From the IMG/VR virus record IMGVR_UViG_3300031087_000234, positions 1-64,000 of that record: a stretch of 64,000 bases of DNA; one strand, 5' to 3'. Of the stretch, positions 27,800 through 56,800 are shown in pieces. A model generated the notes under the pieces. The model was given only the letters and a program-made list of their open reading frames with translations. It ran no database searches and was not told the origin of the DNA. Position 1 is the first letter of the stretch. Each line of letters opens with the position of its first letter. This stretch comes from an uncultured virus (IMG/VR IMGVR_UViG_3300031087_000234). Taxonomy: Duplodnaviria > Heunggongvirae > Uroviricota > Caudoviricetes. The translations under genes were made by a program, and so were the position numbers.

Positions 27800-29250
27800 T
27801 ATGTGTACAATTTTCCGTACAGTCCCGAATATTTTGACGTGGCCCCTATGGTATACTTCCCGAAGAAAATATCAAGGGGTATTTCAATAGATTTTCCCTA
27901 TTAATAAACCAGTATTTAGCCATAATATTTCCCGCCCCTACCCCGAAAATTTTGACGCCCTCATTGCCTATAAATTGCCCCGAAAAGTATCGAGAAAACA
28001 GACAGACTGCCTAACGCGGAATTTTGCCCCCGCCTCATTTTCAGATTTCAAGCCGTTCAAATATCACAATAGATTCAATAGCTTAGAAATTATATCACAA
28101 TATCAGGAAGAAGTATATGATCATTTTGTGCTATCGTCCCATCTTCCCGAAAATACTATCATTTCTTTATTAATCAATAACTTAGAGAGTGGAGAATACC
28201 ATATACCACTTTCAAGCTCGAATCGTTCACTAATCAACCAGTATTCACCTGACAACAGCGCAGCGTTCACTACCACAAACCGCTGAAAAGTGCAATTTAT
28301 TCGGGATCTCAAAAAACGCACACTTTTACAGATAGACGCTCAGCATTTACCCCTAATCGGGGTATGCTTCTCGCCGCAAGATCATTCTACAAGTCTCTTG
28401 TAGACGCTCAACAACTAACGTTGTTTTCGTCCGCAAAAGTAACTGTGTTGATTATTAAATAAACAATAATAACGTTGTGTTATTGTCTCTTTGAGTGATG
28501 ATTGATGTTATGATGATTGTCAATGAGGCTGTGTAAACACAACAATATAATAACGGAAAGAAACGATAACGTTTCGGTAGGAACGTTTTCCGGTTCCCAC
28601 GAAGACACCGAAGAAAGCGAGAGCTTTTTGAGAGTGGTTTAGTTCCGTTATTATATTGTGCGTAAGGTGGAAGCCTCACGCCCAATAATGACACTGTGAA
28701 ATTATCTTTCCCGAAAATGATAACGCTTCGCAATGATTCTTCCCGAAATGATTTCGTTATGAAACATTAACGACATAACACATTTTCTAGTGTGTTTAGG
28801 TTGTTGATTGATTGTAAACTAGTGTAATCATTCCCGAAAGTTATTATCTCACTTTGAATAGTGTCAATGCACATAGTAACGTGTAGTTATTATTACTTAG
28901 TTATCAATAAGATAGATTATCATTATGTTGGTTATTGTTGTATTGTGTTACTATCTCACATTGTGATTATCCTTCTGTTAGTGTTGTTAGTTGATAGTTA
29001 TTATCACTTATTCACTATTATGCATAATTAGTCGTTAAGATGCATTAATGTTTGTTATCTCGTTGGATATGTGGGAAATGATAGATCATTGCACCTGCTA
29101 GGCTTCTTGTAACGCATTCTAAGAGGCTTTTACTGTTAGCTGTGTGTTGATATGGATTGAGAGAGATTCACCGTTTAAGCAGTTTTTGCATAAATACACT
29201 ATGACGGTTATTGATAGGTAAAATCTATTGGAAACTCGCAGACAAAATAA
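27800..29250. repeat. Non-coding block with 8 same-strand CCCGAA copies and a TTG/TTAT-rich low-complexity tract
   Basis: CCCGAA at 27824, 27859, 27942, 27979, 28146, 28710, 28742, 28833; no credible ORF. Confidence 0.7.
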
Positions 29251-29270
29251 AAGGGCTTTTCAGCCCCTTT
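29247..29270 (-). terminator. Terminator closing the early island
   Basis: GGGCT-GAAA-AGCCC-TTTT on the minus strand. Confidence 0.7.
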
Positions 29271-29738
29271 GTGTTTTTTGGTTTGCTTACATAAAGCCAA
29301 ACGCTTTACAAGCCTTATTTCTGCGTTCAATCACTTTTAGGATTGCTTCTAAATTCTGCTTTGTGATGTAGTTGCGATCCATTGCTTCCCGAACATTGAC
29401 GCGATAAGCGCCGAACCCTTCACGAATAATTAGGATGTTATCCAGTGGGGTGATCATTACTCCTGCAACGTTCTCAGACAAGAAAAGCGCGTTTACTTCA
29501 TACTCTATGTTTCCATCATTCACACTTTCGATCATAATGTCAGTGCGAACAGCCCAGGCGTAACAATCGTGAATCAGGGTTGTTTGATCTTGGGTTAATG
29601 TTCTGTTGCTGATTGCGTGAGTCAGAGCAGCCGCACCAAAAGTTTCCGCGATAGTGATAACATCGTTAAAGGTGGTGATAGCGAACATAATAAAACCCTT
29701 TTTGTTTGTGGGTTGCTGTATTGCTTCCCGATGAAAAG

Positions 29739-29768
29739 ATTATACGACAAAAGCCCCTTTCGGGGCAA
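29739..29768 (-). promoter_or_regulatory. sigma70 promoter with embedded hairpin
   Basis: TTGCCC-18-TATAAT overlapping GCCCC-GAAA-GGGGC. Confidence 0.7.
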
Positions 29769-30921
29769 GTGTTTTGATCATTTGTTTGTTATTCTTTTTC
29801 CAGCGGTTCAGCCTCATAACCTAGCGTTCTTATGTCAAACAATGCTTGATCAATCTCGTTGATCTTCTTCTGAAAGAATTCCCGCCGTGCTTGTAGCTTA
29901 TCATCTAGCTGTGATAGGGCTTGCGCTACTGTCTCGCCTTGTGCGTATACAGTGCCATTGTCACGCCCTGGCATATTGCCTGCTGATGCACTTGCAGACC
30001 AATAACCGCGCTTAGAGAAAAACACCTGAAAAGTGCTAACCTGGAAAACTTTTGTTTTTAATACGTGACAAAAACGGATCATTTTCTTTCGCCTTCTATT
30101 GCATCAATAAACGCGCTAACATCCATCGTAAAACCTAAAGCGCCAGCCCGCTTGCAAGGGAGATCGCGCAAATACTCTATATTGCCTTCCATTGCTATAG
30201 CTGTTTCAAGGTCTCTTAATGCTTTGTGCAAGATATGTGAATTCGGGTAGTCTCCTTGTTTCATTCTATCACCTCATAGCCAATTGTTTCACACCAGGAA
30301 AGCGCCTGATCTTTTGTCTGGAATCTTGCACCCTCTACCGCTTGATTTTCCCGATAGCCTGACATTATTTTCAGAGTATAATCAACCTTATTACGATAAC
30401 GATTAGTGATTATTTTTACTCTCATTATTTCCACGCTTTAATTGATCTTTCTAGCTTAGGAATGCTAACCTTTAAGGCTAACATTAAGTTAACTTGCTTA
30501 GGTGTCCAGGTATCTTGATCCTGCAATTCTTGATAACGCTTCTTATCATATGCTAATTGCTCTTTTTTCCTTTTCAGGGTTAATCTACCGTGCCAGGTAA
30601 AGCCGCTAATAGTGTTATTCATTTTATCACCTATGAAAGAAGAGCAAAAGAACCGCCAATGATGAAAGGAAGATCATAGCGGGTGAAACGCTTGTACCGC
30701 ATCCACTGAATGATCACAAAGGAAAGCAACTGTAAAGCGTCGATCACGTTGTTTGTGATGTTCACGCTTTCACTATTAAACATCATTTCGCCTGTTACGT
30801 TGAATGCAACGTTTGACACGTAAGCACAAACTACAGAGAACAAACAAGCCTTGATAAGGCTAGTCTTTGATAATGTCTTAATAATTGCTTTCATTTGTTA
30901 CACCATTTGAGCCAAAAACCT

Positions 30922-30950
30922 ATTATGCACTATTGCCCCTTTCGGGGCAA
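30922..30950 (-). promoter_or_regulatory. sigma70 promoter with embedded hairpin
   Basis: TTGCCC-17-CATAAT overlapping TTGCCCC-GAAA-GGGGCAA. Confidence 0.7.
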
Positions 30951-31181
30951 GCATTATCAATAAATGATTTTCTCGCAGGTCATAGCGTTATGATCTTTCA
31001 TTGACATAGTGATCGAACCTGTGCGGAGATCCCAATCAAGATTCAGCTTTTGTGCGTGAGTTATTTCGAATTGTCCGAGATTATGATAGGCGTAATACTT
31101 ACCTGATACGATTTCTAAGCCAGTGTGAGAGATTGAGATAGATTCTTGCATTTTGTTTTACTCTTTGATGGGTGAAATAAG

Positions 31182-31210
31182 ATAGTAACATTGCCCCCTT
31201 TCGAGGGCAA
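31182..31210 (-). promoter_or_regulatory. sigma70 promoter with embedded hairpin
   Basis: TTGCCC-17-TACTAT with TG extension; hairpin TTGCCCTC-GAAA-GGGGGCAA. Confidence 0.7.
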
Positions 31211-34200
31211 GCATTATTTAATCTTTCTTTGCTTCTTTCCAGTGAGTCAGATTAATAACGCCTTTTGCTTTCATCTTCTCGATCAAGTCGCTTGCAGTGT
31301 TGAAAGAATTTTTATAATAAGTCACTGTGTCGCAATAGCCTGTAGCTTTATCCTCAAAATCTTCACAATGAATCTTTCCGATGATAAGAGAGTTTAAAAC
31401 GTAATGTTCGCCGGTGTACCAGTTATGCAAGTGAATCGAACAAGAAAAATCATCGCTCGGGCCTTCTGGCGTCATACACGCGATCAAATCCTCGCGCTCA
31501 ACAACTAAACCCCAAACGTGATCTACATCACCGGGAGTTTTTACAGTAGCGTTTACGTTGATAGTTTTCATTGTCGATTGCCTTAATCTTGTGAGGGCTG
31601 GCACCATTGCCGCCCAACACAGATATAATAACATAACGAGGATTAAAGGCAACACTTTGATCAAGAATGTTTGAAATTCTTTTGAGCTACATCTAAATGA
31701 TCTTTTATTGCTTTGAGGCTTGACATATGCGCCAAATGCTCTACCTTTCCTTTCTGGCAATGCTTCTTAGTTAGATGATATCGAGCCAGTAGACAAAGAT
31801 AATCGAAATCGTTATCATTTACCAGTTTATTGCAAATACCGAAACGGCGGGATATTGGATAGCCTTTAAGAGGGTTAAACGCATTGTGACGATTAGCGCC
31901 CATTAACGATCATCTTCAATCAAAATTATTTCATCGCTGAAATGATGCGTTACCATCTCACAACCTTCATCAGTAATGTAATGAATTGACATATAATCGC
32001 CGTGATCAACTTCTGTGATCAGCAATGAATATTGCTCACCGAAACAGTTTTCACGCGCCAGGCGATCACCCGCTTGGATACATTCAGCCTTAATCATACG
32101 TGCTTTCATTTTGTTTTCCTTAGTGGTAGAAAGATAACAGCTTATCATTACCGCCTAGCGATTGCAAGCGGTAACACTAAACATTATCAATAACGGCTAT
32201 AGATACCGATTGGATCAGTAGGGAAGTACTCGCCACCCGTAAACATTTCTGTTTCAAGCCAGATGTAACCACAAGGAAGGGTTTTAGCCTCTTTAACTAC
32301 AGTGCAATAGCCGTGAATCTTGATTAAGTCGCCAGCTTTAATAGACATTGCGCGGAGGATTCCTAGTTTACGCATTTTGCTTTTTCCTTAGTGGTTAGCA
32401 GTATTGCCGCCCTTCTGATAAACATCATATCATAGTGAGCGACACGATCAACACTTATTTAAATCTATTTGCTCTTTCTTTTGCTATTTCTTTTTTGAAC
32501 TGCTTAACATACACTTTATTAAAGTTTTGCAACTGAGTGAAAGCGATGTTATATAGCTTTTTCTCTGTCTGATATTCTGGCGTTACTTTGATGTGATCCG
32601 GCGTCAATCCCATTGCACTGCGTGGATATTTATCAAAGGCAGATCCTAGCAGCTTGCAATTTTCTTCTAACTGCGCTTTAACTTTCTTTGCTTCTTCAAA
32701 GGTATAAGCTAACATTAATCACACTCCGCACACGAATTAATCAGACCAATAAAACCAGAAAGCAACGATACCATAAACAGCACTAAACTACCAGCGTTTT
32801 CGGTCAAAGGATCTTTAAAAATCATTGAGCAGATGAAAGCAATAATAGCGATGATGAATGAAAAGCGCATTTTCTGATTCCTGTCTTTGTTTAGGCTCTA
32901 TTGCCTCAGTCCGTATATAATAGCATAACCAGTTTTAAGATCCACTATTGTTTTGTAAAGATTGTGGAACTATTCTCATTACCAGAATAACAGGTATCTC
33001 CAGTGTGTTTCCTCCGGTGTCCATCGTTGCCGCTGTAAGTAAGATAACAAAAAAGGCCAGCGATTGCCAGCCCTTTCTACTATTATTCGTAATCCTTGTA
33101 AATCTCTGTAATAACTTCCCAAACATCTGCCTTTGTATGACAGATTCTATACTCTTCAGAGGCGACTACATCCCCCATCTGTGATCCCTCGTCAGTCTCA
33201 GGGTCTACACCTTCGGGAAAGTGAACCAGCGTTAAATCTTCAACACGATAAGCACTCTTGCCGCTTCGCAGATTCATCGGGCCTGGTGCAATAGTGTAGC
33301 ACAACTCATAACGTTTACAAACAGACAACACAGAATTAAAATGAGAGTAAGACGGATGACCATAGTCACGGATATTTGCCATATCTTCACGGGCTTTATC
33401 TTTTGCATCTTTCAGTTTAAAACGAATCATTTTATTTATCCTTAAGCAACGATTGCAGCGATTGAAAACATAAATCCGATAATACCTAAAATCATAACGC
33501 CGTGTAAGTTGTTCATTTTGTTTCTTTCCGTTGTCTGTTTCAGTAAGGCTATTATGCCCCACTTTCGCAGGGCTGTTTTATCAATTTGTGCTATTTAATA
33601 TAGTCTTTGCAATCTTCTGGGTTTAAGAATGGCATATGTTGAGCCATAACTTTACCGTATCTGCCGATTCCCCACTGATTAAGGTTATATTCTGCCGTTC
33701 GCTGAATCACTAAACCGCACTGGATCTTGTCTGCTGCTTCTTTTTCTCTGTTGTTCAAAAAGTCGTGAAATCTCGGTAATGACTTATTGTTTTCTTTTTC
33801 AAATTCTGCTAGCGCGTCTCTTTCTTCTAGGACGAACATCAAATCACGAAAACCATTATTTGCCATTTCTTGACCAGTAGCAAAACGGGAATGATGATAA
33901 AAATAGTTGGTTGGATCTTGATACTCTTCCAGCGGCTGCACTTCGTCTAAGAAAAATAGTTGACCGTTATCAAGCCCTAACCCATTTTCAGAGAGAGTTT
34001 CAACAGTTGCAATTTTGCGAGTTTCCAGAACAATGACTTTTTGGCCCACACAGAAGAAGTTTTTCATTTTGTTTGTCTCAGTTAGCGCCGCACCATTGCC
34101 GCGCCTTCTGTGATACATAATAGCAAACTGAGTTATTTTGTTTTATCTTTTTGTGCTATTGCATTTCAGCGTGAATAATGGCGCATTCAATCCCCGCCAG

Positions 34201-36585
34201 GATGTTACGACGATCTTTTAGTAGTTCGTCAAGTGTGGGAGACGGTGATAATAAATGCTCTGTTTCGGTTATCTCGCGCTGAACGATTTCCGACAGTGTG
34301 CGCATTTTTTCAATAGTCAAGTTTAAAGTAACAACTTTGCTCATAAAATCCTCTATTCAGTGATTATGCATAAATAACGCTGTTTATGCAGATAGTAACA
34401 GATGACAACTAAATTTAAGCCATTCTCAGGAGTTCATAACAAATAACCCCATCTTAAAACCTCCTGTAACGCTCTCTAAGCGTCGATCTCCGAAAGTGCT
34501 ATCATCGTATTGCCTCGCGGAGATCTCTTTAAATTCACTTTTTTGCATATCGCAAAAATGAAATAAAGTTGTATTGGCTATTGCTTTTAATCGTTAAGTA
34601 AGATCACTATTAACGCGGCAACTAAAGCAGTTGTCCAGCCAAATAAATTAACAATAAGAGCGAAAAGTAGTAGATCAATGATAAAGTCACGCATAGTAAT
34701 TACCCTTTGTTATTAACGATCATAAAATGTTTGATGCGGTGCCAGGTGCGGTAAAGGTTGTTATGATAGTTAGGGCCGCGATCATTAACATCACAATATG
34801 CTTCGATAGCTAACTGTTTCACTTCGTCACTATTCAGCTTTAAACGTTTACCGTGCGTTACTACTTCTACGCATTCTTTTATGTAGTAGACATAATCGCC
34901 ATTGTCAGTAAAGATCGTCCGGTTGTCTCGAATATAGCGGATCAGATAATCATTCCCAAACTGCTTTACTTTTCTTAGTGCTTCACTACCGTTAAACAAC
35001 TTGCGGATATGGTAAGGATCATTGATTGCTTTGTTTGAATCTTCACACCAGACTGAAAGAGCCTTTTTAATGTCGCGGCTTCTTGCCTCATACTCTGGCA
35101 CTAATACATTGATCCGCGCTTGGGCTTTTGCTTCTTCGCTCAATTCGTCATAATAGAAAAACTTTGTAATGTTCATTGGTTAAGCCCTTTTCATAAAATC
35201 AACAGCGCTAGTGAGGGATCGAGTTCTGCTTTCAATAGCTAACGAAATGCTATTGTAGGTTTTAACGCGCATAGGTGCAAGGGAAATCTTTCTAATTTCA
35301 GCAAAATATTTTGCCTTTACTTTCTTATTACATCCTGAGTCATTTGCAACAGTATTCATAATCGCTTGCACTTTCTGATTATGAATGCGATAGATTGCCT
35401 CCGGCGTGTACTCCTGGCGCTTTGTAGCGATCAGGGTATCATTGGAAATTGAACGTAATAGGGTTAGAAGTTGTAAAGGTTGCATTATGTTTGCCTTAGT
35501 TGCTTAACCGATGAAAACCATTATACACTAACAGAGGCGGGAGTAAATCCCCCGCGCAATGTTTATTATTGGAAACACAAGACTAAAAAGACGATAGCCC
35601 ACAAACCGCCGCTGATTAACAGCTTTGTTTTGTTTTCTGCTAAAAATGATTCTTCTTTATAGTCTATACTGTCGCTTTCCATATGGGTTTAGTTTACCTC
35701 TAAGTCTGATTTATTAAATTGGAATTTGATTTCAGGATGTAACATATTTTCTAAAATCACTTTCCCGCTGTTATCATCTTGCGAGTCTGAAACAATGTAA
35801 CATCCCCGCGTAATGATGTGATCTGCGTCTACCGTTTCAACGTCCGGCATAAAGTCCAGAATGTCAAAACAATTATTCGCATCTTTCTTTAACTCGGTAA
35901 CAGAGTTGCTTACCCAGGTTTTTTCAAAGTCTGCGCCGCACTTGTCGTTAGTCTGAGTTGATACGTTACACAGTGAAGCGATGAGAACGATAGAAGCAAA
36001 CATTTTTAGATCCTTAAGCTGTCATATAATCATTAACGATAGCAACGATAGTTGCTGGAATGTCTTGGGTGGCTAGCTCTGCGCTATCGCTCACCTGACG
36101 AAAACCATTATCGCACACATACGTTAAAACACAATAGTTATTTTCAACAGATACCGCGATTGCTACTTTTCTGTTGTGGAAAGAGAATTTAAAAGTCTTC
36201 TCTGTCGCATAGATCTCTTTATGTTCCAGGATCACGCCTGGCACGATATCAGAGAAAAAAGCTAGGGAGTTTGCAGCAATCATTTTTAAATCCTATACCT
36301 GTTTTGTCTCAATCAATGCAGACATACTAACACAGTTAGACCTATGATCAATAGTTATTTGTGATTCTTTTTCGTTAATGTCCAGGACAATGCCCCACAC
36401 AGGGAAGCCGTGTTGATCATAGTAACGTGCTATCATCCTGTTAGATTGATTCCATTGTTTGATAAGGGCGGGGAGGTTGTTAGCTGGTGTATCGTGTCTC
36501 ATTGTTTCTGTAATCCATTGTAAGAGGTTTTATTGCTTGGTTAGTGTGATTCTATGGCTTATGTTTGCAGTCTCTTAAACGTCGA

Positions 36586-36610
36586 AAGGGGCGCTATTTG
36601 CGCCCCCTCT
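36586..36610 (-). terminator. Intrinsic terminator
   Basis: GGGGGCGC-AAATA-GCGCCCC-TTT on the minus strand. Confidence 0.7.
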
Positions 36611-36612
36611 TG

Positions 36613-36747
36613 TTACTCTTGCCAGTTGCGTTTATTGCTGACTCCTCGCGTTGTCTTATTCAGCTTTGCGCCCTTCTTGATCACAACTTCACCGAATGCC
36701 GCACGTTTGCCCGACTTCATTTTTTCAGCTTTGTTTGTGTATTGCAT
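36613..36747 (-). CDS. 44 aa basic protein similar to T7 gp1.1 (not in ORF track)
   Basis: MQYTNKAEKMKSGKRAAFGEVVIKKGAKLNKTTRGVSNKRNWQE; KGxKLNKTxR...KRxW matches T7 gp1.1 as recalled; GAGG RBS. Confidence 0.7.
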   Translation of the reverse strand: MQYTNKAEKMKSGKRAAFGEVVIKKGAKLNKTTRGVSNKRNWQE

Positions 36748-36775
36748 CTTTATACCCTCTTTAAGTTTAGTTAGA

Positions 36776-37342
36776 TTATTTGTTACGCATTTCGTTTGCT
36801 TTACTGCGCATAAAGAAGCAGTCTAGCAGAATCAGCTTGCCGTTGTCTACTGCAACATTTCGCGGTGAAATCTCAAACATTACATCAGATCCGTAATTCG
36901 CTACATCATCCAGCGCTTCAATCATTGTCGTGCGTAACTCGTCATTTTCAATCGTTGAAAATGCATCGTGTACCGCGTTGTAACTGTCATAAAGGTTGCT
37001 AGGACACTTTAACACATCCTGAGCCTTTCGCAAAGTTTTATAAATTTCGTATTGATCTGCTTCTAAACTATTTTTCAGGCTTGAAACTTTTGTATACTGT
37101 TTCATTTTGAAAATATTCTCGCCGCTTGCTAAGCAATCTATTCTCTCAGTTACTGGAAACAGTGTATCACACAGCCAGCCCATTGAGTAGACTTCTTTCA
37201 ACGGATCTTCACTTACTAACAGTACTTCACTATCACTCAATTCGAAACACTCAGTGAACAATCCTTTACCCAACTTTTTCAAGCCCTTCACTAACTGGCG
37301 TTTAGTTGTGTTGTCTGTGATTTCGATGATAGTCATTTTCAT
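36776..37342 (-). CDS. Divergent protein-kinase-like protein
   Basis: LGKGLF Gly loop, FEISPRNV catalytic-loop-like, LLDCF. Confidence 0.55.
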   Translation of the reverse strand: MKMTIIEITDNTTKRQLVKGLKKLGKGLFTECFELSDSEVLLVSEDPLKEVYSMGWLCDTLFPVTERIDCLASGENIFKMKQYTKVSSLKNSLEADQYEIYKTLRKAQDVLKCPSNLYDSYNAVHDAFSTIENDELRTTMIEALDDVANYGSDVMFEISPRNVAVDNGKLILLDCFFMRSKANEMRNK

Positions 37343-37659
37343 TTTCCTAGTTAGTGGTGGTTGTTTCTCTAAATCAGAGACACTATATTATAATGTCTCT
37401 TGTTTACAGTCAACAATTATTTACTTATTTTTATAACTTTCCAACTCTTGCATAAAGTAAACACTTCTTTATACTGCTGTTTCATCTCTTGCGCGTCCTG
37501 GAAAGATAAACGCCAGTCAGGACTCCAGATTGTGCCGTCTGCCTGTTCACATTGGATTGTATACTTTTGCATTTTATTCTCGCTTATGGCGAGAGACTTT
37601 CCCGCCGTCTGATAAGTATTATCTGTTATTCTGAATTAAAGGTCAACAACTATTTTAGA

Positions 37660-38010
37660 TTATTCTTCGTTTTCTTCTGCCTCTTCTAACTCACTTTCGA
37701 GATCTTCTAGTTCAGATTCTAATGTCTCCAGATCTTCCATTAGCTCTTTGTAATCTTCGTTTTCTTCCTTCTCTTGTGATCCTTCGTAGTCACTCTTTCC
37801 CGTATTGTAAGATATTTCATCAACCATCTTAAGAGCATAAGCTGGCGCATAAGTTTGACCACAAATTTCTACTTCTTCGTAACAATCATTCAGAAAATCA
37901 TCATATTCTCTTTCGCTAACGGTGATTTCAAAATTATCCATTTCAGCTTGCTTTTCTTTGATTTCTAATTTTTTAGCTTCGATGTTTGCTTTGATGGTTG
38001 CGATAGTCAT
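37660..38010 (-). CDS. Highly acidic protein (candidate DNA mimic)
   Basis: Very D/E-rich with coiled-coil termini; adjacent to ocr. Confidence 0.7.
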   Translation of the reverse strand: MTIATIKANIEAKKLEIKEKQAEMDNFEITVSEREYDDFLNDCYEEVEICGQTYAPAYALKMVDEISYNTGKSDYEGSQEKEENEDYKELMEDLETLESELEDLESELEEAEENEE

Positions 38011-38159
38011 AATATTTTCTCTTCTCTGTTAGGGACAACCCTTTGTTGTCCTGATATGAAACATTCTACGCTTTTTTGATTCAGAGTCAACAACTGTTTT
38101 CTAAATCTTTTAACTTTCTTTCTCATTGCCCCCTAACCAGGAGGCAACACGAAAAATCG

Positions 38160-38492
38160 TTATTCTGTTTCTTCTTCTCCGAAATCTGATTCACACCATA
38201 CTAAATCATTTGAGTTCTGAATGTCAATGTAAAGTTGTTCGTAGATGCGAGCCTGCAAAATCCGCGTAACATCTTTTGTCTCAGGAATCAATCCGCTGTC
38301 TTCGAATTCGTGATCAATACCTTCTGACGCCATTACCTCAAAAATTTCTTTGTAGTAATGGGGAACATAATGATCCGCCACTTCGTGCAATGCATCGCTT
38401 GAATCGCTTACAATCGTTAAGTTATCGCACTGGATACGCTCGTTAAAAGCGACGATTGCATTTGCCAGGATTTCAGTGTAAGTGGTAGTCAT
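38160..38492 (-). CDS. ocr: Ocr (T7 gp0.3-like) DNA-mimic anti-restriction protein
   Basis: VPHYYKEIFEVMASEGIDHEFEDSGLIPETKDVTRILQARIYEQL, near-identical to the T7 Ocr core as recalled; AAGGA RBS before ATG 38492. Confidence 0.92.
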   Translation of the reverse strand: MTTTYTEILANAIVAFNERIQCDNLTIVSDSSDALHEVADHYVPHYYKEIFEVMASEGIDHEFEDSGLIPETKDVTRILQARIYEQLYIDIQNSNDLVWCESDFGEEETE

Positions 38493-38576
38493 TTTCTTGT
38501 CCTTGGTTGCTTTGTTAGTGTGAGAGTATTCTATCAAGGGCTATTATTATTTGCAAAAGCCCTTTGTAAAATAATC

Positions 38577-38747
38577 TTACTTTTTCAGAGTTAGTTTCTT
38601 ACCGTGTGAGATACCAGGGAATGACCAGCGCCCATCATCGTTTTTCACAGGGTCGCGCAAGGTTGCTTTGCTACCAGACGCTTTTACTTTCTCGTTTACT
38701 GCTTTACGGATTGCGCGGGCTTCGTTGCGAGTGGTGAAAGTTTTCAT
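38577..38747 (-). CDS. 56 aa basic protein (not in ORF track)
   Basis: MKTFTTRNEARAIRK...; upstream TTGACA...ATAAT-type promoter. Confidence 0.6.
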   Translation of the reverse strand: MKTFTTRNEARAIRKAVNEKVKASGSKATLRDPVKNDDGRWSFPGISHGKKLTLKK

Positions 38748-38847
38748 AGTTTTCTCTTCTCTTTTGTTAGGCGGGAAACCATTTCCCCGCTTGATGTAAG
38801 TATTATCGTTTATTGCTTTGCTTCTGTCAAACTTATTTTTGAATCTT

Positions 38848-39114
38848 TTACAGTAAAAACATCACTTCTTTTGCTTTTAACTGTGAATCAACAATCACAG
38901 GGTTTTTATAGTCAACAAATCGGGATGTTTTTTCGATTGCAAATCCGATATACGCCGCGCCTGCTTCTTTCTTTAAGTTTTCCCGCGCCACTTCGATAGC
39001 CGCCGCCAGGCTTAAACGCCCATCAATAGAAATATTCGCAAAGCTACCAGATCCGGCGATCACTTTGTCACCCATAGCTGAAAGTTTAAACATTGTTGCG
39101 CTGAAAGAAGCCAT
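38848..39114 (-). CDS. Hypothetical protein
   Basis: AAGGA RBS. Confidence 0.7.
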   Translation of the reverse strand: MASFSATMFKLSAMGDKVIAGSGSFANISIDGRLSLAAAIEVARENLKKEAGAAYIGFAIEKTSRFVDYKNPVIVDSQLKAKEVMFLL

Positions 39115-39761
39115 TTTATTTTCCTTGGTTGATTGTTTTCTCTTACCTAGTGAGGCTATCTTAAAGCCCCACTAAATCAAAGTCAAACGATTTATAAACC
39201 CCAGCGACGAAAACCACAATCTTTATTTTTATTCAACTCCGATTTAAGACGCTTACAACGTTGACGAATCGCATATAGATCCGGTGTGCATACCGTTGCG
39301 CCTGATTTAAAGTGAATAGCCATTACATATTGTTTCATTGCTTTGTTTCCGTTTTCGTCTCAGTGATAAGAATACTACAGATTTTTGTTTTCTAGGTCAA
39401 CACTATTTTAGAAAAAGATTTTAGATAGTACTGGAATCCAGACAAGCAAGGAAAACAAACCAGCGATGATCCAGCCTTCTTTACGAACTCCACGATTTGC
39501 GCGGTCTTCGTTATCGTTTTGCATAGTGATGAAATCGGCTTGCTTGAAGTTAGTTGGCTTGTTCATAATTCGTTTTCCTTGGTTGTTTGTTTAAGTTGTC
39601 TTGTTACTGTGAAGCTAGTGTATCATACTGATTCTTTATTTCAACTACTATTTCGTTTCTTTTTCAACTTATCCAGACTTCGTATGCTCTGGCGCTACTG
39701 CCCTTGCGGGTGGCTCCCTGCCTCGTTGATGTGGTAATACTAAGGGATCTCGTTTTGTCTG

Positions 39762-40295
39762 TCAATCAAAGAATCGTTTATTTAATGCTTTTTTCAATTC
39801 TTCTTCTGTAAAGCCTTCGCTGTCTGCTACTTCTGCGAATAATACCGGTTCGCTATCTTCTTCCTGCTCTTCTTCGTCGTCTGGCTCTGCTAACTTGTGG
39901 ATCTTCGCTTCTGCCTTCTTAAGTTTGTTATCTAACACCCTCATAGCTAGATCAAAAGTCCCTTGTGTAATTCTCCTGGCTTCTAGGTCTGCCGTTAGTG
40001 CTGCTGCTTTCGGCTCGTACTCTTCCAGAATCTTAAACGCTGGATCTACAGCATACAAAGGATTAACGCGCCGCGCCGCTCTTTCTGGTTCTGCTGCTCC
40101 GGCAATGTCTGCCGTGCCGTCAGGATTCCAGCCTGGGATCGTTCGAGTCCTTACGTTACCGTTAGACCGTGCCAGACGGTTGCCTACTTGCTCCCCGCTA
40201 TACCCTACAGAATGATCTAGAAGCTCGTCAGGAATAACCCGCCAATCATCAGGATCGTGCTTTACCCAGGATTGGATCACATACTCACGCCCCAT
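39762..40295 (-). CDS. Hypothetical protein with acidic C-terminus
   Basis: GGAGG RBS, TAATG coupling. Confidence 0.7.
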   Translation of the reverse strand: MGREYVIQSWVKHDPDDWRVIPDELLDHSVGYSGEQVGNRLARSNGNVRTRTIPGWNPDGTADIAGAAEPERAARRVNPLYAVDPAFKILEEYEPKAAALTADLEARRITQGTFDLAMRVLDNKLKKAEAKIHKLAEPDDEEEQEEDSEPVLFAEVADSEGFTEEELKKALNKRFFD

Positions 40296-50402: not shown

Positions 50403-53268
50403 TAACACTCCTTATTCATATGTAAGCCAATACGCATTAAATGAGAAGCCAAATCCAACACAGCGTTACGATCAGTAAACTCCAAAATAGCTTCTCCGTG
50501 CTTATCTTTTGCTGTAAGCCACAGCAGGTCTTCCCCGCTCTCATTAGACCTTTCAACAAGAATAGTATCCCCATACTTATCAGTATACAACTCTTCGTTC
50601 GGCACCTCTGGCAGAGCATCTTCCTCAGGAGTGCTGATCACCTTAATGTTGCGAGGCATCACACCTACTTCACCATTACCAAATGTAACTTTTATAGTGA
50701 TATCCTCCTTACCTGAATGGTCTTCGAGCACTGTCGCCAGCCTCCCGATCATATCTTCATTCTGATATCTTCCCAAAGTATTGCCAACATACTCAATAAC
50801 AGAACCTTGAGGGATAGTCTGGATAGTCATATATTCTCCTTACTTAACGAGTAGAGCCTTTGGCCCTGTTTTACGTGCGCCGATCTTATCGACAAAGATA
50901 TTAAACACTGCTTCCGAAGGTGCAGAGAGCATATAATACTGGATACTTCCAGGATATGCCATCTTGTTCTTAATGCGAATGTCTAAATGTTTAAGTTCTG
51001 TTTCTCCTCTTACGGCTGCGGCCTTAGTAGAGAAGGAGACAGAGAAATCAAAACTCATTTAGTCCTCCTTATTCAAAATTACTGTAGTACTCTTTGATAA
51101 CATCTTCCAAAGTATGGTTTTGGTCAACTTCTAACCAGACACCATTAAAATCGAAAAGGATCTTATCTGCTTTTGTGGTATAAAGCAATGACTTTGCTCC
51201 CTTAACGGCAGTAAGTAGATCTACACCTTTATCTACTTCCACCTGGATTGTTCCTGTGAATATTCCTTTCATAGAGATACCTCCGAGAGTTTAAGAATCT
51301 CCAGCACCTTAGTACTACATTCAGTAATGTTATCTGTTTCAACGTTACCTGTGAGATCCATCAGTAGAGAGTCACAGTAAGAGGCATACCCTTGTGCCTC
51401 GCCAATGGCTAAATCACGTTGTTTCAGCAATACCTGGCCTTTCTTCACCTCAGCATTATATGCCACTGTCATCTGGTTTAGTTGCTCTAAGTATGTGGTA
51501 TCAGTCATAGTGCCTCCAAAGCGCCCCTATAGGAGCACTTTCTTAGTTTCATCAGGTGCGTCAGTAAATAACTGAATCACTTTGTCAAGCATTCTTACGA
51601 TCTCGTCAGTAAGGTTGAACTCTTTATACGACTTCCACGTTTGCTTCTGATCCCCGAAGATCCGCAACACCTTAATAGGATTGTCCAGAAGAATGTTACC
51701 TTCGTCAGTCTCCTCATAAGACGCCAGCCAAGACTCATCCTCACCGTTTACACGGATAATGACACCATTACCGTACTGCGTCTGTGTGATGTTCTTTGTG
51801 GAAGTCAGTACTTTCATTCTTAATCCTTAAATTCGATAATCGGGCAGACTTTCTGCTTCTTTGCTTTAACGTAAGATACCAGCAAACCCTTCTCACTGTC
51901 AACAGAGAAGTTAGATAGTTTACTACCTACATAACTCCAGATGGAGACAATAAACCATACCACTGCCGCCAATGCTACAATAAAGCCCAAGCCAATGCTC
52001 CAACACTTCACGACGACAATCCAGTTATGTAACTCTGCATCAGCAGTGCTTGTCATAATGGCTCCGATAAGCATAGGAATAGCCCCAGCAACTGCAATAC
52101 CCATTAGCAGAAAGATAATAGGGGTGAAAATATATAGGAAGAAGGTACACATCACCACTTGCCAGAAGTATACGCATAGGCTTTTAGATGGGGTACGATT
52201 CATATTGCGGATAGTACGATAATGCCAAGAATTTTTAGAGATATTCATTTTCCCTCCTCAGGATTAAAATTAAGAAATAGTTCGCTTATTGGGATTGTCC
52301 ATTCTACTCCAGACGGATAACTACCGCGACAGATTTTCAACTTACCCTTCTCATCACTATGGAAGTTGATGCTATCAGGGAAAGAATGGTTTGGAACTTT
52401 TGTCCAAGGCGTCCACTGTGTAGGCTTCTCGCCTCCATTGATCCAAGTGAAACCTTCATCTTCCAGTAATTCCAACGCAAAAATCATATCTTCTTTTGTT
52501 GGACAAGTTACCTTCATTCCTACTTTTAAGTCTAACATTATTCCTCCACGCAATCTGTAAACTTGAAGAACACACCTCGGTTTTGGTCTTCAATATAGTA
52601 GCGCATATCGTACAGAGGGCGCATTTTCATTACAACACCATTTTGACTAACCGAGAAAACGTTTGTCGTTTGATCCCAACGATTCATTGAGGGCGTCTGT
52701 AGCTCCTTCCCGTCAACGTTCACCTTAAAGGAGTTACCGTAGTCCGTAATTTCTGAACCCTTCTCAGAGAAGGTTTTAGGCGTGTTTCCTGAGACAGTAA
52801 CATCGCACACCCAATGTGTTGTACCTGCAACTGCCTGACCCGCTAACAACATCATTGCCGATAACACCACACCTTTAATCATCTTCATTGTTTGTTCTCC
52901 TCTTTGTGTAATTTATTAGCTCGTTTCAGAGCACTCTTAACTGTTGAAAAGGATATCTTACGTGGTTGATTATTGTCAAGAAGAATCAGACCATCCTTTT
53001 TACAAATGATTTTGTAGAGAGCATCGAAAGGCAAGCCAATAACATCTCCGGCAGTGTCTGTGTAATGTTTGATGCTTCGTTGATCAAAGTAGTCACGACA
53101 ATCCTGGTGGAAGCTGGAAGTGATGCGTATGTTTGTCGTTGTACGGTAGTAGTATGGTGTCCAATCAACGAAAGATCCACACGAACATCCAGCTACTGTA
53201 TTGGATTGCTTCTTGAATGACTCTGTAGTTCCGCAGCAAAGAAACTCGACAGTGATAATTGGTTGCAT
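50402..53268 (-). other. Array of hypothetical genes (50402-50830, 50840-51058, 51069-51272, 51269-51508, 51527-51817, 51820-52248 membrane, 52245-52538, 52538-52888 signal peptide, 52885-53268)
   Basis: Tight packing, GGAG RBSs. Confidence 0.7.
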
Positions 53269-53374
53269 TATACGTCCTCCTCATTAAGTGAACCTGCATA
53301 CTAGCAGTAATAGAGGTTGACTGCAAGAGGTGATTTAGTGTAGAATGATACTTCAATCAATAAGGAGATACACA

Positions 53375-53614
53375 ATGAAACTGACTTGCACCAAAGTAGT
53401 AAACGTACCGTTCACCGAAGGCCAGAAGTATGAGGCTAAAGTAGAAGGTAAAGAAGTAACCGTGGTTGGAGACGATGGTTATGAATGGCTAGTTGAACCT
53501 TACCTTAATGGTTACGCGATCCTGGTAGGCGGTATGAACTTCCAAAACATCCGTGTTGTAGCCAAGTTCCAAGAAGAAGTTAGTCCAAGAAAACACCTCA
53601 CAATTAAATCTTAG
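53375..53614 (+). CDS. Hypothetical protein
   Basis: AAGGAG RBS before ATG 53375; upstream TTGACT...TAGAAT promoter. Confidence 0.7.
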   Translation: MKLTCTKVVNVPFTEGQKYEAKVEGKEVTVVGDDGYEWLVEPYLNGYAILVGGMNFQNIRVVAKFQEEVSPRKHLTIKS

Positions 53615-53621
53615 AATATCA

Positions 53622-53650
53622 TTGACAGATTGAAAAATATATGCTAAGCT
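53622..53650 (+). promoter_or_regulatory. sigma70 promoter with no adjacent ORF
   Basis: TTGACA-17-TAAGCT with TG extension. Confidence 0.7.
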
Positions 53651-53660
53651 AAACACTAAG

Positions 53661-53850
53661 TTGCGAGCGATAGCGAGTAGGGATTACCTCTATTCGTTAT
53701 CCTTATTCCATATGTTACATAAGGAGTAGATCCCGAAGGGAGATACGACGATATGTAACATCTCTTCTATACTCCTCTCTATTACATATCTCTTCTATTA
53801 TTCTTACATACCTCTATTGACACTCTGATCTTATTGATATACTCTCTAAT
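53661..53850 (+). other. Structured non-coding element (G-A hairpins plus CTCT(T)CTAT repeats); candidate origin or ncRNA
   Basis: Hairpins at 53661-53680 and 53712-53761; pyrimidine-rich repeats at 53762-53850. Confidence 0.55.
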
Positions 53851-53879
53851 CATACTTAAACAACCACTAAGGAGTAATA

Positions 53880-56800
53880 ATGTTCTTTGAATTTATGCAG
53901 TATGCGTTTGTATGGCACTCTTCACAGTTCTACGCTATGTTAGCTGTAGGTGTGATCTCTGGTCTAATCTTCTCTCGTAAACGTAAGAAGAAGTCTGGTA
54001 TGATCTTGCTAAACATTATCATCTGGGTTATGATTATCTACCCTCTAATGTGCAGCACCAACTATATGCGTTACCACGCTGGAGTTCAGGCTTGTAACAC
54101 TCACCAAGAGTATGTTATGATCCGTGGTATCTGCTACGCACCAACAGATGGATACGTACCGTACTATACCCAGCAAATCAACAAAGAAGTTGGCGATGCT
54201 GTTAAAGATACCTCTAAAAAGTAAGGAGAAAATATGCAAGCTACTGTGATTCTGGATCGTATGAACTTAGGTAATGAAGGTAAGGTGGTTGAGGTTGTTG
54301 CCGAAGTGCCTGCTCTCGCTACTATCTACTTCTTGGAGCCAGGCGGTCTGGTCAAGCAAACACGTACAATGCGACCAGTGTACTTGGTTAAAGGCGTTGA
54401 TCGTATGCAGAGAACCAACAAAGAAGGTACATTCACAGTACCTGTTACTTTCCGATACGAAGATCATTTTGGTAGTGATCTTATGTCTGCTGATGAAATC
54501 GAAATTAAGGAGTAATAAAATGGTAGAACTTCCAGAAGTAGGGTCTGTTTGGGAATCCAACACAGGAGAGGATAGCGTTACAGTCATCAAGATAGGCTTT
54601 GGTGGTGTAACTTATCGCTGGAATGGCGAAGATGGTGACGAACAGTTTGAAACCCGAGTAACATATGAGATGTTCCGGGATCGATTTACCCTTCGTGTGG
54701 CTGAGCCAGCGTTACCTGAGATCAACGAGGTTATGTATCGGGATCAACGCTCCCTTAACACCGAGGTTCGTCTATTTGCTATGGACTCTAAAGAATATGA
54801 CCAAGTACTACTGATCACAGAGAATATTGATTCTGGTAAGTCTACTAGTGCTCATCTTCTTAAGCTGGATGTGGACGATGCTTTAGACTTGGCCTCAGAC
54901 TTAACCCGTATGGCCCTGCAACTAAAACGTCGATTAAACTGATTGACACGGCACAAGGATGTGCTAAGATATGTGTACTGAAAACGAGGAGAGATATATG
55001 TTAGATTCAAGCGAACGCCGTAAGTATGTACCTGTGACAACTCCACGCTATACCGATGAACAGATTGGTATGTACAAGATCTATGAGATTGTGTTGTGCA
55101 GGGGCATCCAGGCAACGATCCGTGACATTTATGTGCGTATCTTTCGTTATATTGATGACGAAGGTGAGGAGCAGTTTGGCAAGTATCTCTCTTTTCGTAT
55201 GCACGAGAAAGAGTGGCAAGCCGTTGACGTAACTTTCGAGGAGATCGAAAAGCTGAACGGTGAGATCAACTTTGAATATGGAGGCAAGTATGCCAAACCA
55301 AAAGTTTAAAATTGGAGATTGGGTGATGGACACGTACTCAGGTAAATCTGGGCGTGTAACTGCGGTCAATCTATCTGAAACAGACGTTGATAATGAGCCT
55401 AACCCTACGTGGTATTACAGTGTAGATAAGTTTGGTTGGCTATTTGTTCCTGAAACCGATTTGGAGGCACTATGATTAAAGTAACAGAAGTAACTCACAA
55501 AGATATTGGTCGTGTAATCCGTATTATGAACCCCAGAGAGGGTGCTGATTCTATCCCAGGTACTGAGGACTTATTCCTTGTTGTGGGCGTAGATGACCTG
55601 GGACGCTTGCGGTTCAAGCACATCGAAGGCACATACCGTGGATGCGAAATAGAGTTTTTGGCTATCGATGAAGACTCTCATCATATTGTCTGGGAAGGTA
55701 GCCTGCTAAGCTACGCAGCAATCCTGCAACAACGCTTTGCAGATGCTTGCGCCTTTGCTCAAGTAGAGGATAGTATGGAGTTTGTTGATAAAACAGACGC
55801 TGACTGGTGTTTGCAAGGTAACGTTGACCTATTCTACATTGAAGATGGTGAGATTTACTCTTATGATCGTGCAAGTCTTGTAGATTCTGATGAAAATTAC
55901 CACAAATACTATGTTGACAATGGTTGTGGTGACGAATATTATGTTCTCTTCTCTGTGAAGAACAGAAAGGATACATTGGATGACGATTATTAAACCTGTA
56001 TCCTGCCGCCAGGCAGGATTTGATCTGAATCACAAGCCACTATGGATCGTACTGTTGGAAGATGGAACAGATCTTTCTTGGGTGGAGGGTGATAATTTCG
56101 TGATGCAAGCTAAAACTGAAACTGTCTTTGGAAGAAAAAGACACTTTCGTGAAAAAACCTCTTGCTCTAAGTACCTTACTCTCGTAAAGTATGCAGTAAG
56201 AAAACACAATCAACCTAAATGTTAAGGAGATTATTATGAATATCGAACTGTCTGCACTCTTGGCTACTACTCTTAGTACCACACTTATTCGTTTCACTGA
56301 CACAGGCAGTAAGCCTAGTCTTCGTAACGTCACTGTACACAGTGAATATAAGGTGGAACGCTTCCTTGTACCAGGTATGAATACCTCTATCACTGGAGTA
56401 ATAGTAGATTCCTATGGCGTAGAATTCTACAATGACAAACAGGAAATTGTTTGTATCGATCTCACTGATGGCAAATCTACTTGGATTATGCGTAATGTTG
56501 ATACTGGTGAGATTATTACCTCAGAAGACGGTAAGGCCCAAGTCGAAAGTGAAGATGCTGTCTCAGCTATGATGAAAGTCGTAGGTGAGATTGTGGCTGC
56601 ATCCGGTGACGTTGAGATCCAACAACTTCACGATGAAACTGTTCTTGCCGTAAAAGGTATGACAATGGCTCAGGCTCAGGCACATTTTGCAAGTAAACTG
56701 CTGGAGATTCTCTTGAGCGCGGATTCGGATGAGATCAAACCAGGCGATACCGTGAAATGTGTTCGTTCTGAGCATTTGGGTGATCTTTTCTACGAAGTAG

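Follow-up and report, generated by a model that had tools for sequence, protein, structure and literature searches.

Stem-loops at the 5' end stabilize bacterial and phage mRNAs, as in the ompA leader and the T7 gene 10 leader, and several more specialized hairpin signals have been described at the heads of transcription units or at origins. The put RNAs of phage HK022 are ∼70 nt long with two stem-loops, putL lying just downstream of PL, and are described as suppressing both intrinsic and Rho-dependent termination without protein factors (PMC9378689). In Escherichia coli the ops hairpin is GCGGTAGC, and in Bacteroides the opsX hairpins have the form YGCGNAGCR; both are reported to be non-template-strand hairpins in operon leaders that recruit the NusG paralogues RfaH and UpxY (PMC11685472). 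By one mutational account of ops, RfaH is no longer recruited in vitro to a site carrying G5A, a substitution that also ranks with the most severe in vivo, and T11G strongly affects RfaH stimulation (PMC5995543). The mini-hairpin DNAs with the consensus GCGNNAGC/GCGNAGC are summarized as unusually stable hairpins that bind single-stranded DNA-binding protein (SSB) poorly, that are found at the primase sites of the phage G4 and St-1/alpha3 origins, at RSF1010 ssiA, and in N4 virion RNA polymerase promoters, and that are much less stable in their RNA versions (PMC13037366). Here, we describe a promoter followed by two tandem-G·A hairpins and a G-poor tract, beginning at position 53622 of the window, which is the first 64 kb of one 76,973-bp viral contig (IMG/VR IMGVR_UViG_3300031087_000234, ∼50% complete by estimate). 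The element looks like an uncatalogued promoter-plus-mini-hairpin cassette at the start of a transcription unit, and not a proven replication origin.

The promoter-hairpin cassette and its conservation

The cassette opens with a predicted sigma-70-type promoter, P1 (53622..53650, plus strand), read directly from the sequence as a TTGACA −35 hexamer (53622-53627), a 17-nt spacer, and the extended −10 element TGcTAAGCT, with its TG at 53642-43 and the hexamer TAAGCT at 53645-53650; the predicted start is near 53657-58. P1 is absent from the consensus-scan list because its −10 hexamer matches only 3/6, and the case for it as a real promoter rests on its conservation. The initial annotation had a promoter at 53622 firing into 230 bp without an open reading frame (ORF), and the ORF list agrees, with no plus-strand ORF of ≥30 aa between 53614 and 53880.

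Hairpin 1 (53661..53680, plus strand) is a tandem-G·A mini-hairpin composed of TTGC (53661-64), GA, GC, GATA, GC, GA, and GTAG (53677-80), with the core CGAGC-GATA-GCGAG at 53664-53677 and the inner GCGATAGC at 53667-53674. This is exactly the structure that had been proposed for it, and it is the RNA minimum-energy fold of the 29 nt from 53658 to 53686 (−5.2 kcal/mol). Nearest-neighbor DNA parameters give only −0.8 kcal/mol, an uninformative figure as sheared G·A pairs lie outside that model. Hairpin 2 (53712..53761, plus strand) has a perfect 10-bp stem with 10-nt arms that are 100% complementary (53712-21 and 53752-61), two tandem G·A internal loops, and a CCC-GAA-GGG tip, the inner part reading G-GA-GTA-GA-TCCC-GAA-GGGA-GA-TAC-GA-C. 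It folds as RNA at −20.9 kcal/mol with a z-score of −4.66 and none of 200 shuffles as good, and by strand the z-scores are −4.7 (plus) and −3.1 (minus). The stem, G·A mismatches, and GAA loop described for it are all present. The broader proposal of stable, strand-specific G·A hairpins is likewise supported: they are real, strand-specific, promoter-linked, and strongly constrained, and their tips obey the GCGNNAGC/GCGNAGC rules.

An alternative RNA helix of 14 bp (53669..53701, plus strand), which the initial annotation did not contain, pairs 53669-82 with 53688-701 through bonds that include three G-U pairs and competes with hairpin 1. It folds at −20.7 kcal/mol as RNA (z −5.0, 0 of 200 shuffles as good) compared with a z-score of −2.0 by DNA parameters, and a similar pairing is seen in the fold of the related coliphage phAPEC8. 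Rfam 15 has nothing relevant in 52500-54500, where only two sub-threshold matches to snoRNA models were returned (E 0.86 and 1.1), and nothing relevant either in 18 phage loci carrying the hairpin tip or in the tRNA-adjacent bacterial loci described below.

P1 and the hairpins are locally the most conserved DNA. Over the 4.2 kb compared with the nearest relative, an IMG/VR contig, identity peaks at 0.95-0.97 in 53660-53779, and most 60-nt windows have 0.5-0.9 identity. Two further lineages were taken from metagenomes, giving an alignment of six sequences, and the mean pairwise identity among the four lineages is 92.5% for P1 (−35 to −10), 97.9% for the hairpins (53651-53770, 120 columns), and 72.9% for the G-poor tract, which also has indels; at the start of the next gene, 108/125 positions are identical. 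The P1 spacer varies among the six sequences, but the −35 and −10 do not. Only four positions change in 53651-53761 (53687, 53704, 53709, and 53736), and the last of these, the sole change in hairpin 2, turns its GAA loop into GTA, which is still G-N-A. An element of ∼115 nt is kept without compensatory change, as would be expected if contacts were made all over the surface of the molecule. A 23-codon minus-strand ORF (53761-53690) with a GAGGAG site 10 nt upstream crosses hairpin 2. It was rejected as the cause of the conservation, with a stop cutting it to 17 codons in five of the six sequences and no synonymous-type variation.

The same design recurs in phages related to the contig, whose UvrD-type helicase has 69% identity to that of phAPEC8-type coliphages (Stephanstirmvirinae). 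The hairpin 1 15-mer is present exactly in phAPEC8 at the homologous position, behind TTGACT-17-TGcTACCCT, and again elsewhere in that genome. Strict matches to CGAGC-N3/4-GCGAG number three each in phAPEC8, phi92, and Klebsiella phage phi1_175008, and one each in the contig and its 96%-complete relative, whereas a reversed-pattern control has none in any of the five genomes. Fourteen cassettes were aligned, from the window lineage (two), phAPEC8 (copies A, B, and C), phi92 (A, B, and C), Klebsiella phage phi1_175008 (A), Citrobacter phage Tr1 (A), and phiWec188 (A), together with one IMG/VR copy B and two from the 37-kb phage G007; for copies B and C of phi1_175008, coordinates only are used. 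The common design is TTGAC-17-TGnTAnnnT, 5-16 nt, and CGAGC-loop-GCGAG. The −35 TT.AC, ATG.TA...T, and CGAGCG...GCGAG are invariant in 14/14, the promoter spacer varies, and the core is on the sense strand in every one. The gap from the −10 to the core is 12-16 nt in the Stephanstirmvirinae cassettes and 5 nt in the two from G007, and the core loops are GATA, GAA, GCA, GGGA, GAAT, GAAC, and GCCA.

The copies within a genome differ in what follows them. Copy A, the orthologue of the window element, is a 94-167-nt leader that continues directly to a ribosome-binding site and small gene in five relatives (phAPEC8, phi92, Klebsiella phage phi1_175008, Citrobacter phage Tr1, and phiWec188), with no AT-rich or G-poor tract. 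Copy C lies in a second divergent intergenic region, with a second promoter and very AT-rich palindromic DNA downstream of it, and two of the three cassettes per genome in the relatives are at or near divergent strand switches. The Tr1 and Klebsiella leaders have G·A tandems in their second hairpin too. The leaders of phAPEC8, phiWec188, and the Klebsiella phage (L001 10660-10760, L076, and L075) have further small hairpins with G-N-N-A or GAA loops (ATC-GTTA-GAT, GTTC-GAA-GAAC, and GATC-GTAA-GATC), and a block CTAT(T)CGTT is common to these leaders and to the window at 53690-53698. In phAPEC8, the 39-aa "hypothetical protein" gp264 (L072; NC_020079.1 20383-20502) is annotated across cassette B, on the other strand, and is unlikely to be a real gene.

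In the complete 37-kb phage G007 (L449, G007:C1:18500-27500), cassettes near 2300 (minus) and 6470 (plus) precede the terminase large subunit gene and a small ORF plus endolysin, respectively, which shows that the cassette heads operons of different kinds. AATACC/GGTATT repeats crowd the AT-rich G007 leaders, which are 190-400 nt long, and in the endolysin leader on the plus strand a second promoter-like site precedes the gene. No second cassette is accepted in the window lineage; the candidates were rejected, as the other TGCTAAGCT or near-core matches (in G000 and G001) are inside coding sequence.

A proposed structured leader and its alternatives

We tentatively interpret the 230 bp, with rather less than even confidence, as a cis-acting structured leader that shields the P1 transcript and/or keeps the elongation complex termination-resistant across an untranslated, Rho-prone spacer. 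The region would be the structured untranslated leader of an early sigma-70-type promoter. Hairpin 1 is at about +7 to +20 from the predicted P1 start and would therefore form as soon as it is transcribed, and together with hairpin 2 it would make a two-stem-loop element of ∼100 nt at the very 5' end of the P1 transcript, provided that P1 fires where predicted and that RNA, as opposed to a displaced DNA strand, is the active form. The element would act in cis on its own transcription unit, with the 5' end shielded and/or the elongation complex made resistant to termination, and P1 transcripts would then cross a 116-nt untranslated, G-starved spacer into the rightward operon. A second promoter within that spacer, P2, would provide a second, unprotected start with a short leader lacking the element.

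Four features favor this interpretation. Five relatives have the orthologous cassette as an mRNA leader; the hairpin is where other promoters of the phage carry GC-rich 5' hairpins and yet is invariant in sequence; the ∼115-nt element is kept without compensatory change; and the untranslated spacer that follows is selected only for lacking G, a Rho-loading composition. The option of a novel noncoding RNA or leader, second in the initial annotation, is the one that fits best; the orthologous copy A is a plain 5' leader in the relatives. The RNA-type pairing modeled for the locus also counts for a leader, the alternative helix scoring better by RNA than by DNA parameters and hairpin 2 better on the plus strand.

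The comparison with other promoters concerns the minus-strand promoters at 37646, 38090, and 38830, which have an ordinary GC-rich hairpin at the same place. A 5'-proximal hairpin is therefore a local rule in this phage, of which hairpin 1 is a sequence-invariant special case. Each of the three has a sigma-70-type promoter with a 7-8-bp GC-rich hairpin ∼10 nt after the −10 hexamer, followed by a purine-rich early-gene leader (AGAGAAGAGAAAA in two of them) and an ATG. They lie in a block (28000-40000) that is lower in G+C (0.39 vs 0.42-0.43), has many very small minus-strand genes as well as most of the promoter-hairpin cassettes of the phage, and has a strongly negative AT skew at 36-40 kb.

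The spacer (53756..53871, plus strand) is pyrimidine-rich (T47 A34 C31 G4) and, with 4 G, has the lowest G content of any 116-nt window in the 77-kb contig. It includes a 63-nt G-free run, for which the chance expectation is 0.006, and CTCT.?CTAT occurs three times in 53756-53830 compared with 0.03 expected from composition. About five CTCT(T)CTAT repeats had been described, and the three strict copies plus the looser CTCTAT/CCTCTAT give about that number. They do not behave as the iterons to which they had been likened, as the tract is the least conserved part of the region and the number of repeats is not kept. The sequence turns over, yet there are exactly three G in each of the six sequences. 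At 116 nt untranslated, with 31 C, 4 G, and almost no predicted pairing, the spacer resembles a Rho loading (rut) site by composition, and is predicted as such on that basis. G-poor tracts (≤1 G in 60 nt) also follow the hairpin in the window's relative, in phAPEC8 copy C, and in phi92 copies B and C, but not behind the short copy A leaders.

P2 (53817..53843, plus strand), which was absent from the initial annotation, lies within this tract and has TTGACA (53817-22), a 15-nt spacer, and TGaTATACT, conserved in 6/6 lineage sequences. P2-like second promoters are present behind copy C of phAPEC8 and phi92 and in G007. Assembled contigs of four RNA-labelled runs, compared with 52900-54700, cover only 53846-54330 and one short piece (53537-53568), with none from X16. 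A 258-nt metatranscriptome contig begins at 53846, 3 nt past the P2 −10 hexamer, and is preceded by adapter-like letters; its start is compatible with a P2 start and is no proof of one, as contigs cannot show RNA starts.

Several observations weigh against a structured leader. Copy B of phAPEC8 and phi92 has no ORF downstream and is antisense to its neighbors, a layout more in keeping with a stand-alone RNA or an origin than with a leader. The sequence of hairpin 2 is not conserved across genera, and in the six sequences of the lineage there is no covariation, the stem positions never changing. Hairpin 1 alone is energetically ordinary (z −1.5, with 21/200 shuffles folding as well), and its significance comes from its conservation and not its energy. 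No contig from the four RNA-labelled runs covers the P1 leader, a gap that is not evidence of absence, and no intrinsic terminator needing to be overridden was found, the only candidate (54425-54443) being weak. The tips are also of the kind favored in DNA, with GNA in 28/74 triloops among the matches listed in the census described below, and the RNA versions are described as less stable (PMC13037366).

An alternative is a stand-alone, trans-acting RNA transcribed from P1, which would consist of two hairpins and a CU-rich tail, have its end set by Rho in the G-poor tract, and act on targets such as purine-rich ribosome-binding sites or a host protein. We consider this quite improbable. It would account for the orphan, antisense copy B units of phAPEC8 and phi92 and for an ultra-conserved 115-nt core that never shows compensatory change, as for a molecule contacted all over, and UCUCUUCU, which occurs twice, is complementary to the AGAGAAGAGAAAA leaders of two phage genes (38025 and 38760). 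However, the 8-nt complementarity is limited to those two genes and is of low-complexity sequence, the CU-rich tail is not kept in sequence, copy A is contiguous with a translated gene in the relatives, and neither a terminator nor an RNA contig was found over the region. The antisense-target idea itself was rejected, with only two ribosome-binding sites sharing the 8 nt of complementarity.

A transcription-activated replication origin, or primosome or primase site, had been the first choice of the initial annotation and is in our estimation unlikely. P1 transcription would open the DNA, the displaced plus strand would fold into mini-hairpins resistant to nucleases and SSB that mark the priming site, and the AT-rich, G-poor tract would unwind. 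The hairpin part of that proposal stands: GCGATAGC fits GCGNNAGC, as described for the G4, St-1/alpha3, and RSF1010 ssiA sites (PMC13037366), and the loops in relatives stay GNA/GNNA. The location is also suggestive, with the cassette 330 bp from the minus-to-plus switch that had been placed nearby (the last minus-strand gene ends at 53268 and the first plus-strand gene starts at 53375), copy C in a divergent region before very AT-rich palindromic DNA, copy B without a gene to serve, and the AATACC/GGTATT repeats in the G007 leaders.

The remainder of the origin proposal fares less well. Copy A in five relatives is a short leader without an AT-rich or G-poor tract, the repeats are kept neither in sequence nor in number, and neither conserved iterons nor a conserved AT-rich unwinding element, both looked for as marks of an origin, lies by the promoter at the window locus or in the five A copies, although copy C of the relatives does have AT-rich DNA next to the cassette. 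Pyrimidine-rich RNA, as would be made over the tract, gives weak RNA-DNA hybrids. The GC-skew minimum at 52-54 kb tracks the change of coding strand, and the skew cannot serve as an origin test because it is confounded by gene orientation. The G007 cassettes precede terminase and lysis genes, and no initiator gene was identified among the annotated neighbors of the element.

Genomic context and spread of the hairpin tip

The plus-strand block in which the cassette lies is preceded by the first rightward promoter at the strand switch, TTGACT-18-TAGAAT (53317..53346, plus strand; consensus scan, 10/12 matches), and opens with a 79-aa gene (53375-53614, plus strand) from the ORF list that matches phrog_3249. 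Downstream of the cassette (53868..54224, plus strand), the ORF list has the ribosome-binding site TAAGGAGTA and a 114-aa predicted membrane protein (53880-54224) matching phrog_7941, a family of unknown function. The layout is the same in phAPEC8, where a block of minus-strand genes meets one of small plus-strand genes that leads up to the UvrD-type helicase. Neither blastn of 53300-54300 nor tblastn of the 114-aa protein against phage records gives a match, and a helicase search in IMG/VR returns close relatives only.

The hairpin 1 tip itself is much more widely distributed. The exact 15-mer is present at 57 IMG/VR loci, including unrelated phage contigs, with AC directly before it in 20/49 distinct contexts compared with ∼3 expected. 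In several unrelated phage families, the tip is set on stems of 4-9 further pairs, and there are variants in which the inner GC/GC pairs become AC/GT and the G·A tandem is kept. In a census of TAC-GAGC-N3/4-GCGAG-TA, 28 of the 74 triloops are GNA (∼5 expected) and 9 of the 30 tetraloops are GNNA (∼2 expected), and flank complementarity in the GNA/GNNA group is 4.0 vs 3.1 of 8 (Mann-Whitney p 0.006), all among the matches listed. The tip had seemed by eye to be promoter-proximal in all phage families, an impression that was dropped: the broad viral sets show no enrichment of a TAnnnT hexamer 5-16 nt upstream (17/118 vs 20 in the control, and 18/109 vs 20), and only the GATA set does (9/29 vs 2). 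Coupling to a promoter is therefore established only for the 14 aligned cassettes.

Bacterial and archaeal genomes have the 17-mer tip at at least 121 loci, a count that by itself is near the chance estimate of ∼70. Two or three copies are present, however, at a minimum of 11 of the 80 loci listed, in some cases arrayed with constant linkers. The pair adjoining the 17-mer is non-complementary in 92/123 instances among the matches listed, and by eye the pairing often resumes after one mismatch. Tandem arrays are present in Bacteroidota and other genomes (L096, L105, L123, L117, and L150), in which differing small hairpins of the GNA or G·A type are separated by an unvarying linker of 6-10 nt and some units recur every 34-35 nt.

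Genes for tRNAs are beside the tip in 6 of 20 bacterial loci scanned, and the tip is on the tRNA strand in all six and is therefore co-transcribed there; this counts for an RNA leader at the window locus. At these loci (L162, L118, L104, L163, L090, and L113), the tip is shortly downstream of the tRNA genes, and in Flavobacteriales a conserved multi-hairpin trailer behind them includes it. Because the tip is widespread in bacteria and archaea and often behind tRNA genes, its distribution suggests a general structural signal that is in no catalogue.

Another reading of the tip is a generic hyperstable hairpin cap, possibly mobile or convergent and with no phage-specific role beyond stability. 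The 121 or more bacterial and archaeal loci, the multiple copies at some of them, and the tips in unrelated phage contigs are in keeping with a generic cap, but it leaves unexplained why the hairpin is invariably coupled to a single type of promoter, why three positions per genome are conserved, and why the surrounding 100 nt are kept at 98%, and we regard it as very improbable.

Comparison with known signals

Phage therapy work makes use of large lytic coliphages of the phAPEC8/phi92/rV5 type, whose transcription program is, to our knowledge, almost unmapped. The literature, judging by search results alone, has no transcriptome study of Stephanstirmvirinae; no publication containing the core sequence was found in it, and nothing relevant on tandem GA hairpins behind phage promoters. 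One recognizable, nearly letter-perfect cassette marks three transcription units per genome in these phages, and it is shared by relatives that can be grown on E. coli K-12, so that its function is directly testable. The tip also joins three separate literatures, on DNA mini-hairpins at phage origins and promoters, on ops-type hairpins, and on put-type antiterminator RNAs. It is possible, although we consider it doubtful, that the cassettes represent a widespread new class of start-of-operon signal in which a tandem-G·A mini-hairpin behind a dedicated promoter licenses selected transcription complexes, in lytic coliphages (three per genome in the phAPEC8/phi92 type) and perhaps in many other phages and bacteria, acting either as a factor-free RNA, by analogy with put, or as a non-template DNA hairpin with an unknown factor, by analogy with ops. 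Such a signal may double as a replication entry point at divergent operon heads.

The tip follows the sequence rule of the DNA mini-hairpins. With its C-G closing pair, sheared G·A, and one or two loop bases, the rule describes GCGATAGC at 53667-53674 as well as the relatives' tips GCGAAGC, GCGCAGC, and GCGGGAGC, and the GNA/GNNA loops of the relatives and the phage context are further points of likeness to the described mini-hairpins (PMC13037366). The G4, St-1/alpha3, ssiA, and N4 sites, as they are described, act in single-stranded DNA at origins, or upstream of the start on the template strand. The window hairpin, in contrast, lies on the sense strand directly behind a sigma-70-type promoter, and is in an mRNA leader in the relatives. 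The stabilizer hairpins of ompA and T7 gene 10 are alike in position, within a few nucleotides of the 5' end (predicted in the case of P1), but need no fixed sequence, whereas the window core is invariant in 14/14 cassettes.

Similarity to ops raises the prospect of a non-template DNA hairpin, in which GCG-NN-AGC would form with RNA polymerase at about +20 and recruit an elongation factor that makes the complex processive. Both GCGATAGC and the ops sequence GCGGTAGC are GCG-N(N)-AGC hairpins in a leader on the non-template strand and differ by one base, in keeping with the reported placement of ops and of opsX (YGCGNAGCR) in operon leaders (PMC11685472), and GCGATAGC resembles the opsX hairpins as well. 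In every cassette the hairpin lies on the non-template strand, a short distance downstream of the promoter. The window hairpin differs from ops in being embedded in tandem G·A pairs and longer stems, and the covarying stems elsewhere, of up to nine further pairs, are too long for a bubble of 10-11 nt as described.

The bases themselves also speak against ops. Of the loop bases G5/T6 of GGCGGTAGnnTG that RfaH reads, the window has A at position 5 and keeps T6, and the equivalent of T11 (pause position −1) is A in 14/14 cassettes, with the G at +1 kept; G5A is reported to abolish RfaH recruitment and T11G to affect its stimulation strongly (PMC5995543). An RfaH ops site was therefore rejected, with G5 replaced by A and the wrong pause base. 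Exact GCGGTAGC does not stand out, with 0-3 per genome compared with 0-1 for a reversed-pattern control. A phage-encoded NusG paralogue was rejected too: the NusG-type NGN domain (PF02357) is in none of the five phage genomes, where the control matched 10/14 reference genomes, and a host factor is possible. An ops-like mechanism is thus, to our reading, a slim prospect.

The put RNAs offer a precedent that counts, by analogy, for a structured leader (PMC9378689). The window element is longer, at ∼100 nt (53661-53761), has hairpin 1 alone in common across genera, and has no −10-like pause element that could be found, unlike put, and it is likened to put by layout and not by sequence or fold. 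The resemblance proposed to either put or ops is one of working only. As the put elements are described, they follow an early promoter directly and have two stem-loops that include non-canonical pairs, an arrangement that is predicted for the window element too, and both are highly conserved and present in a few copies per genome heading early units (PMC9378689). By this likeness of arrangement alone, the put RNAs would be the closest functional analogue of the cassette in layout.

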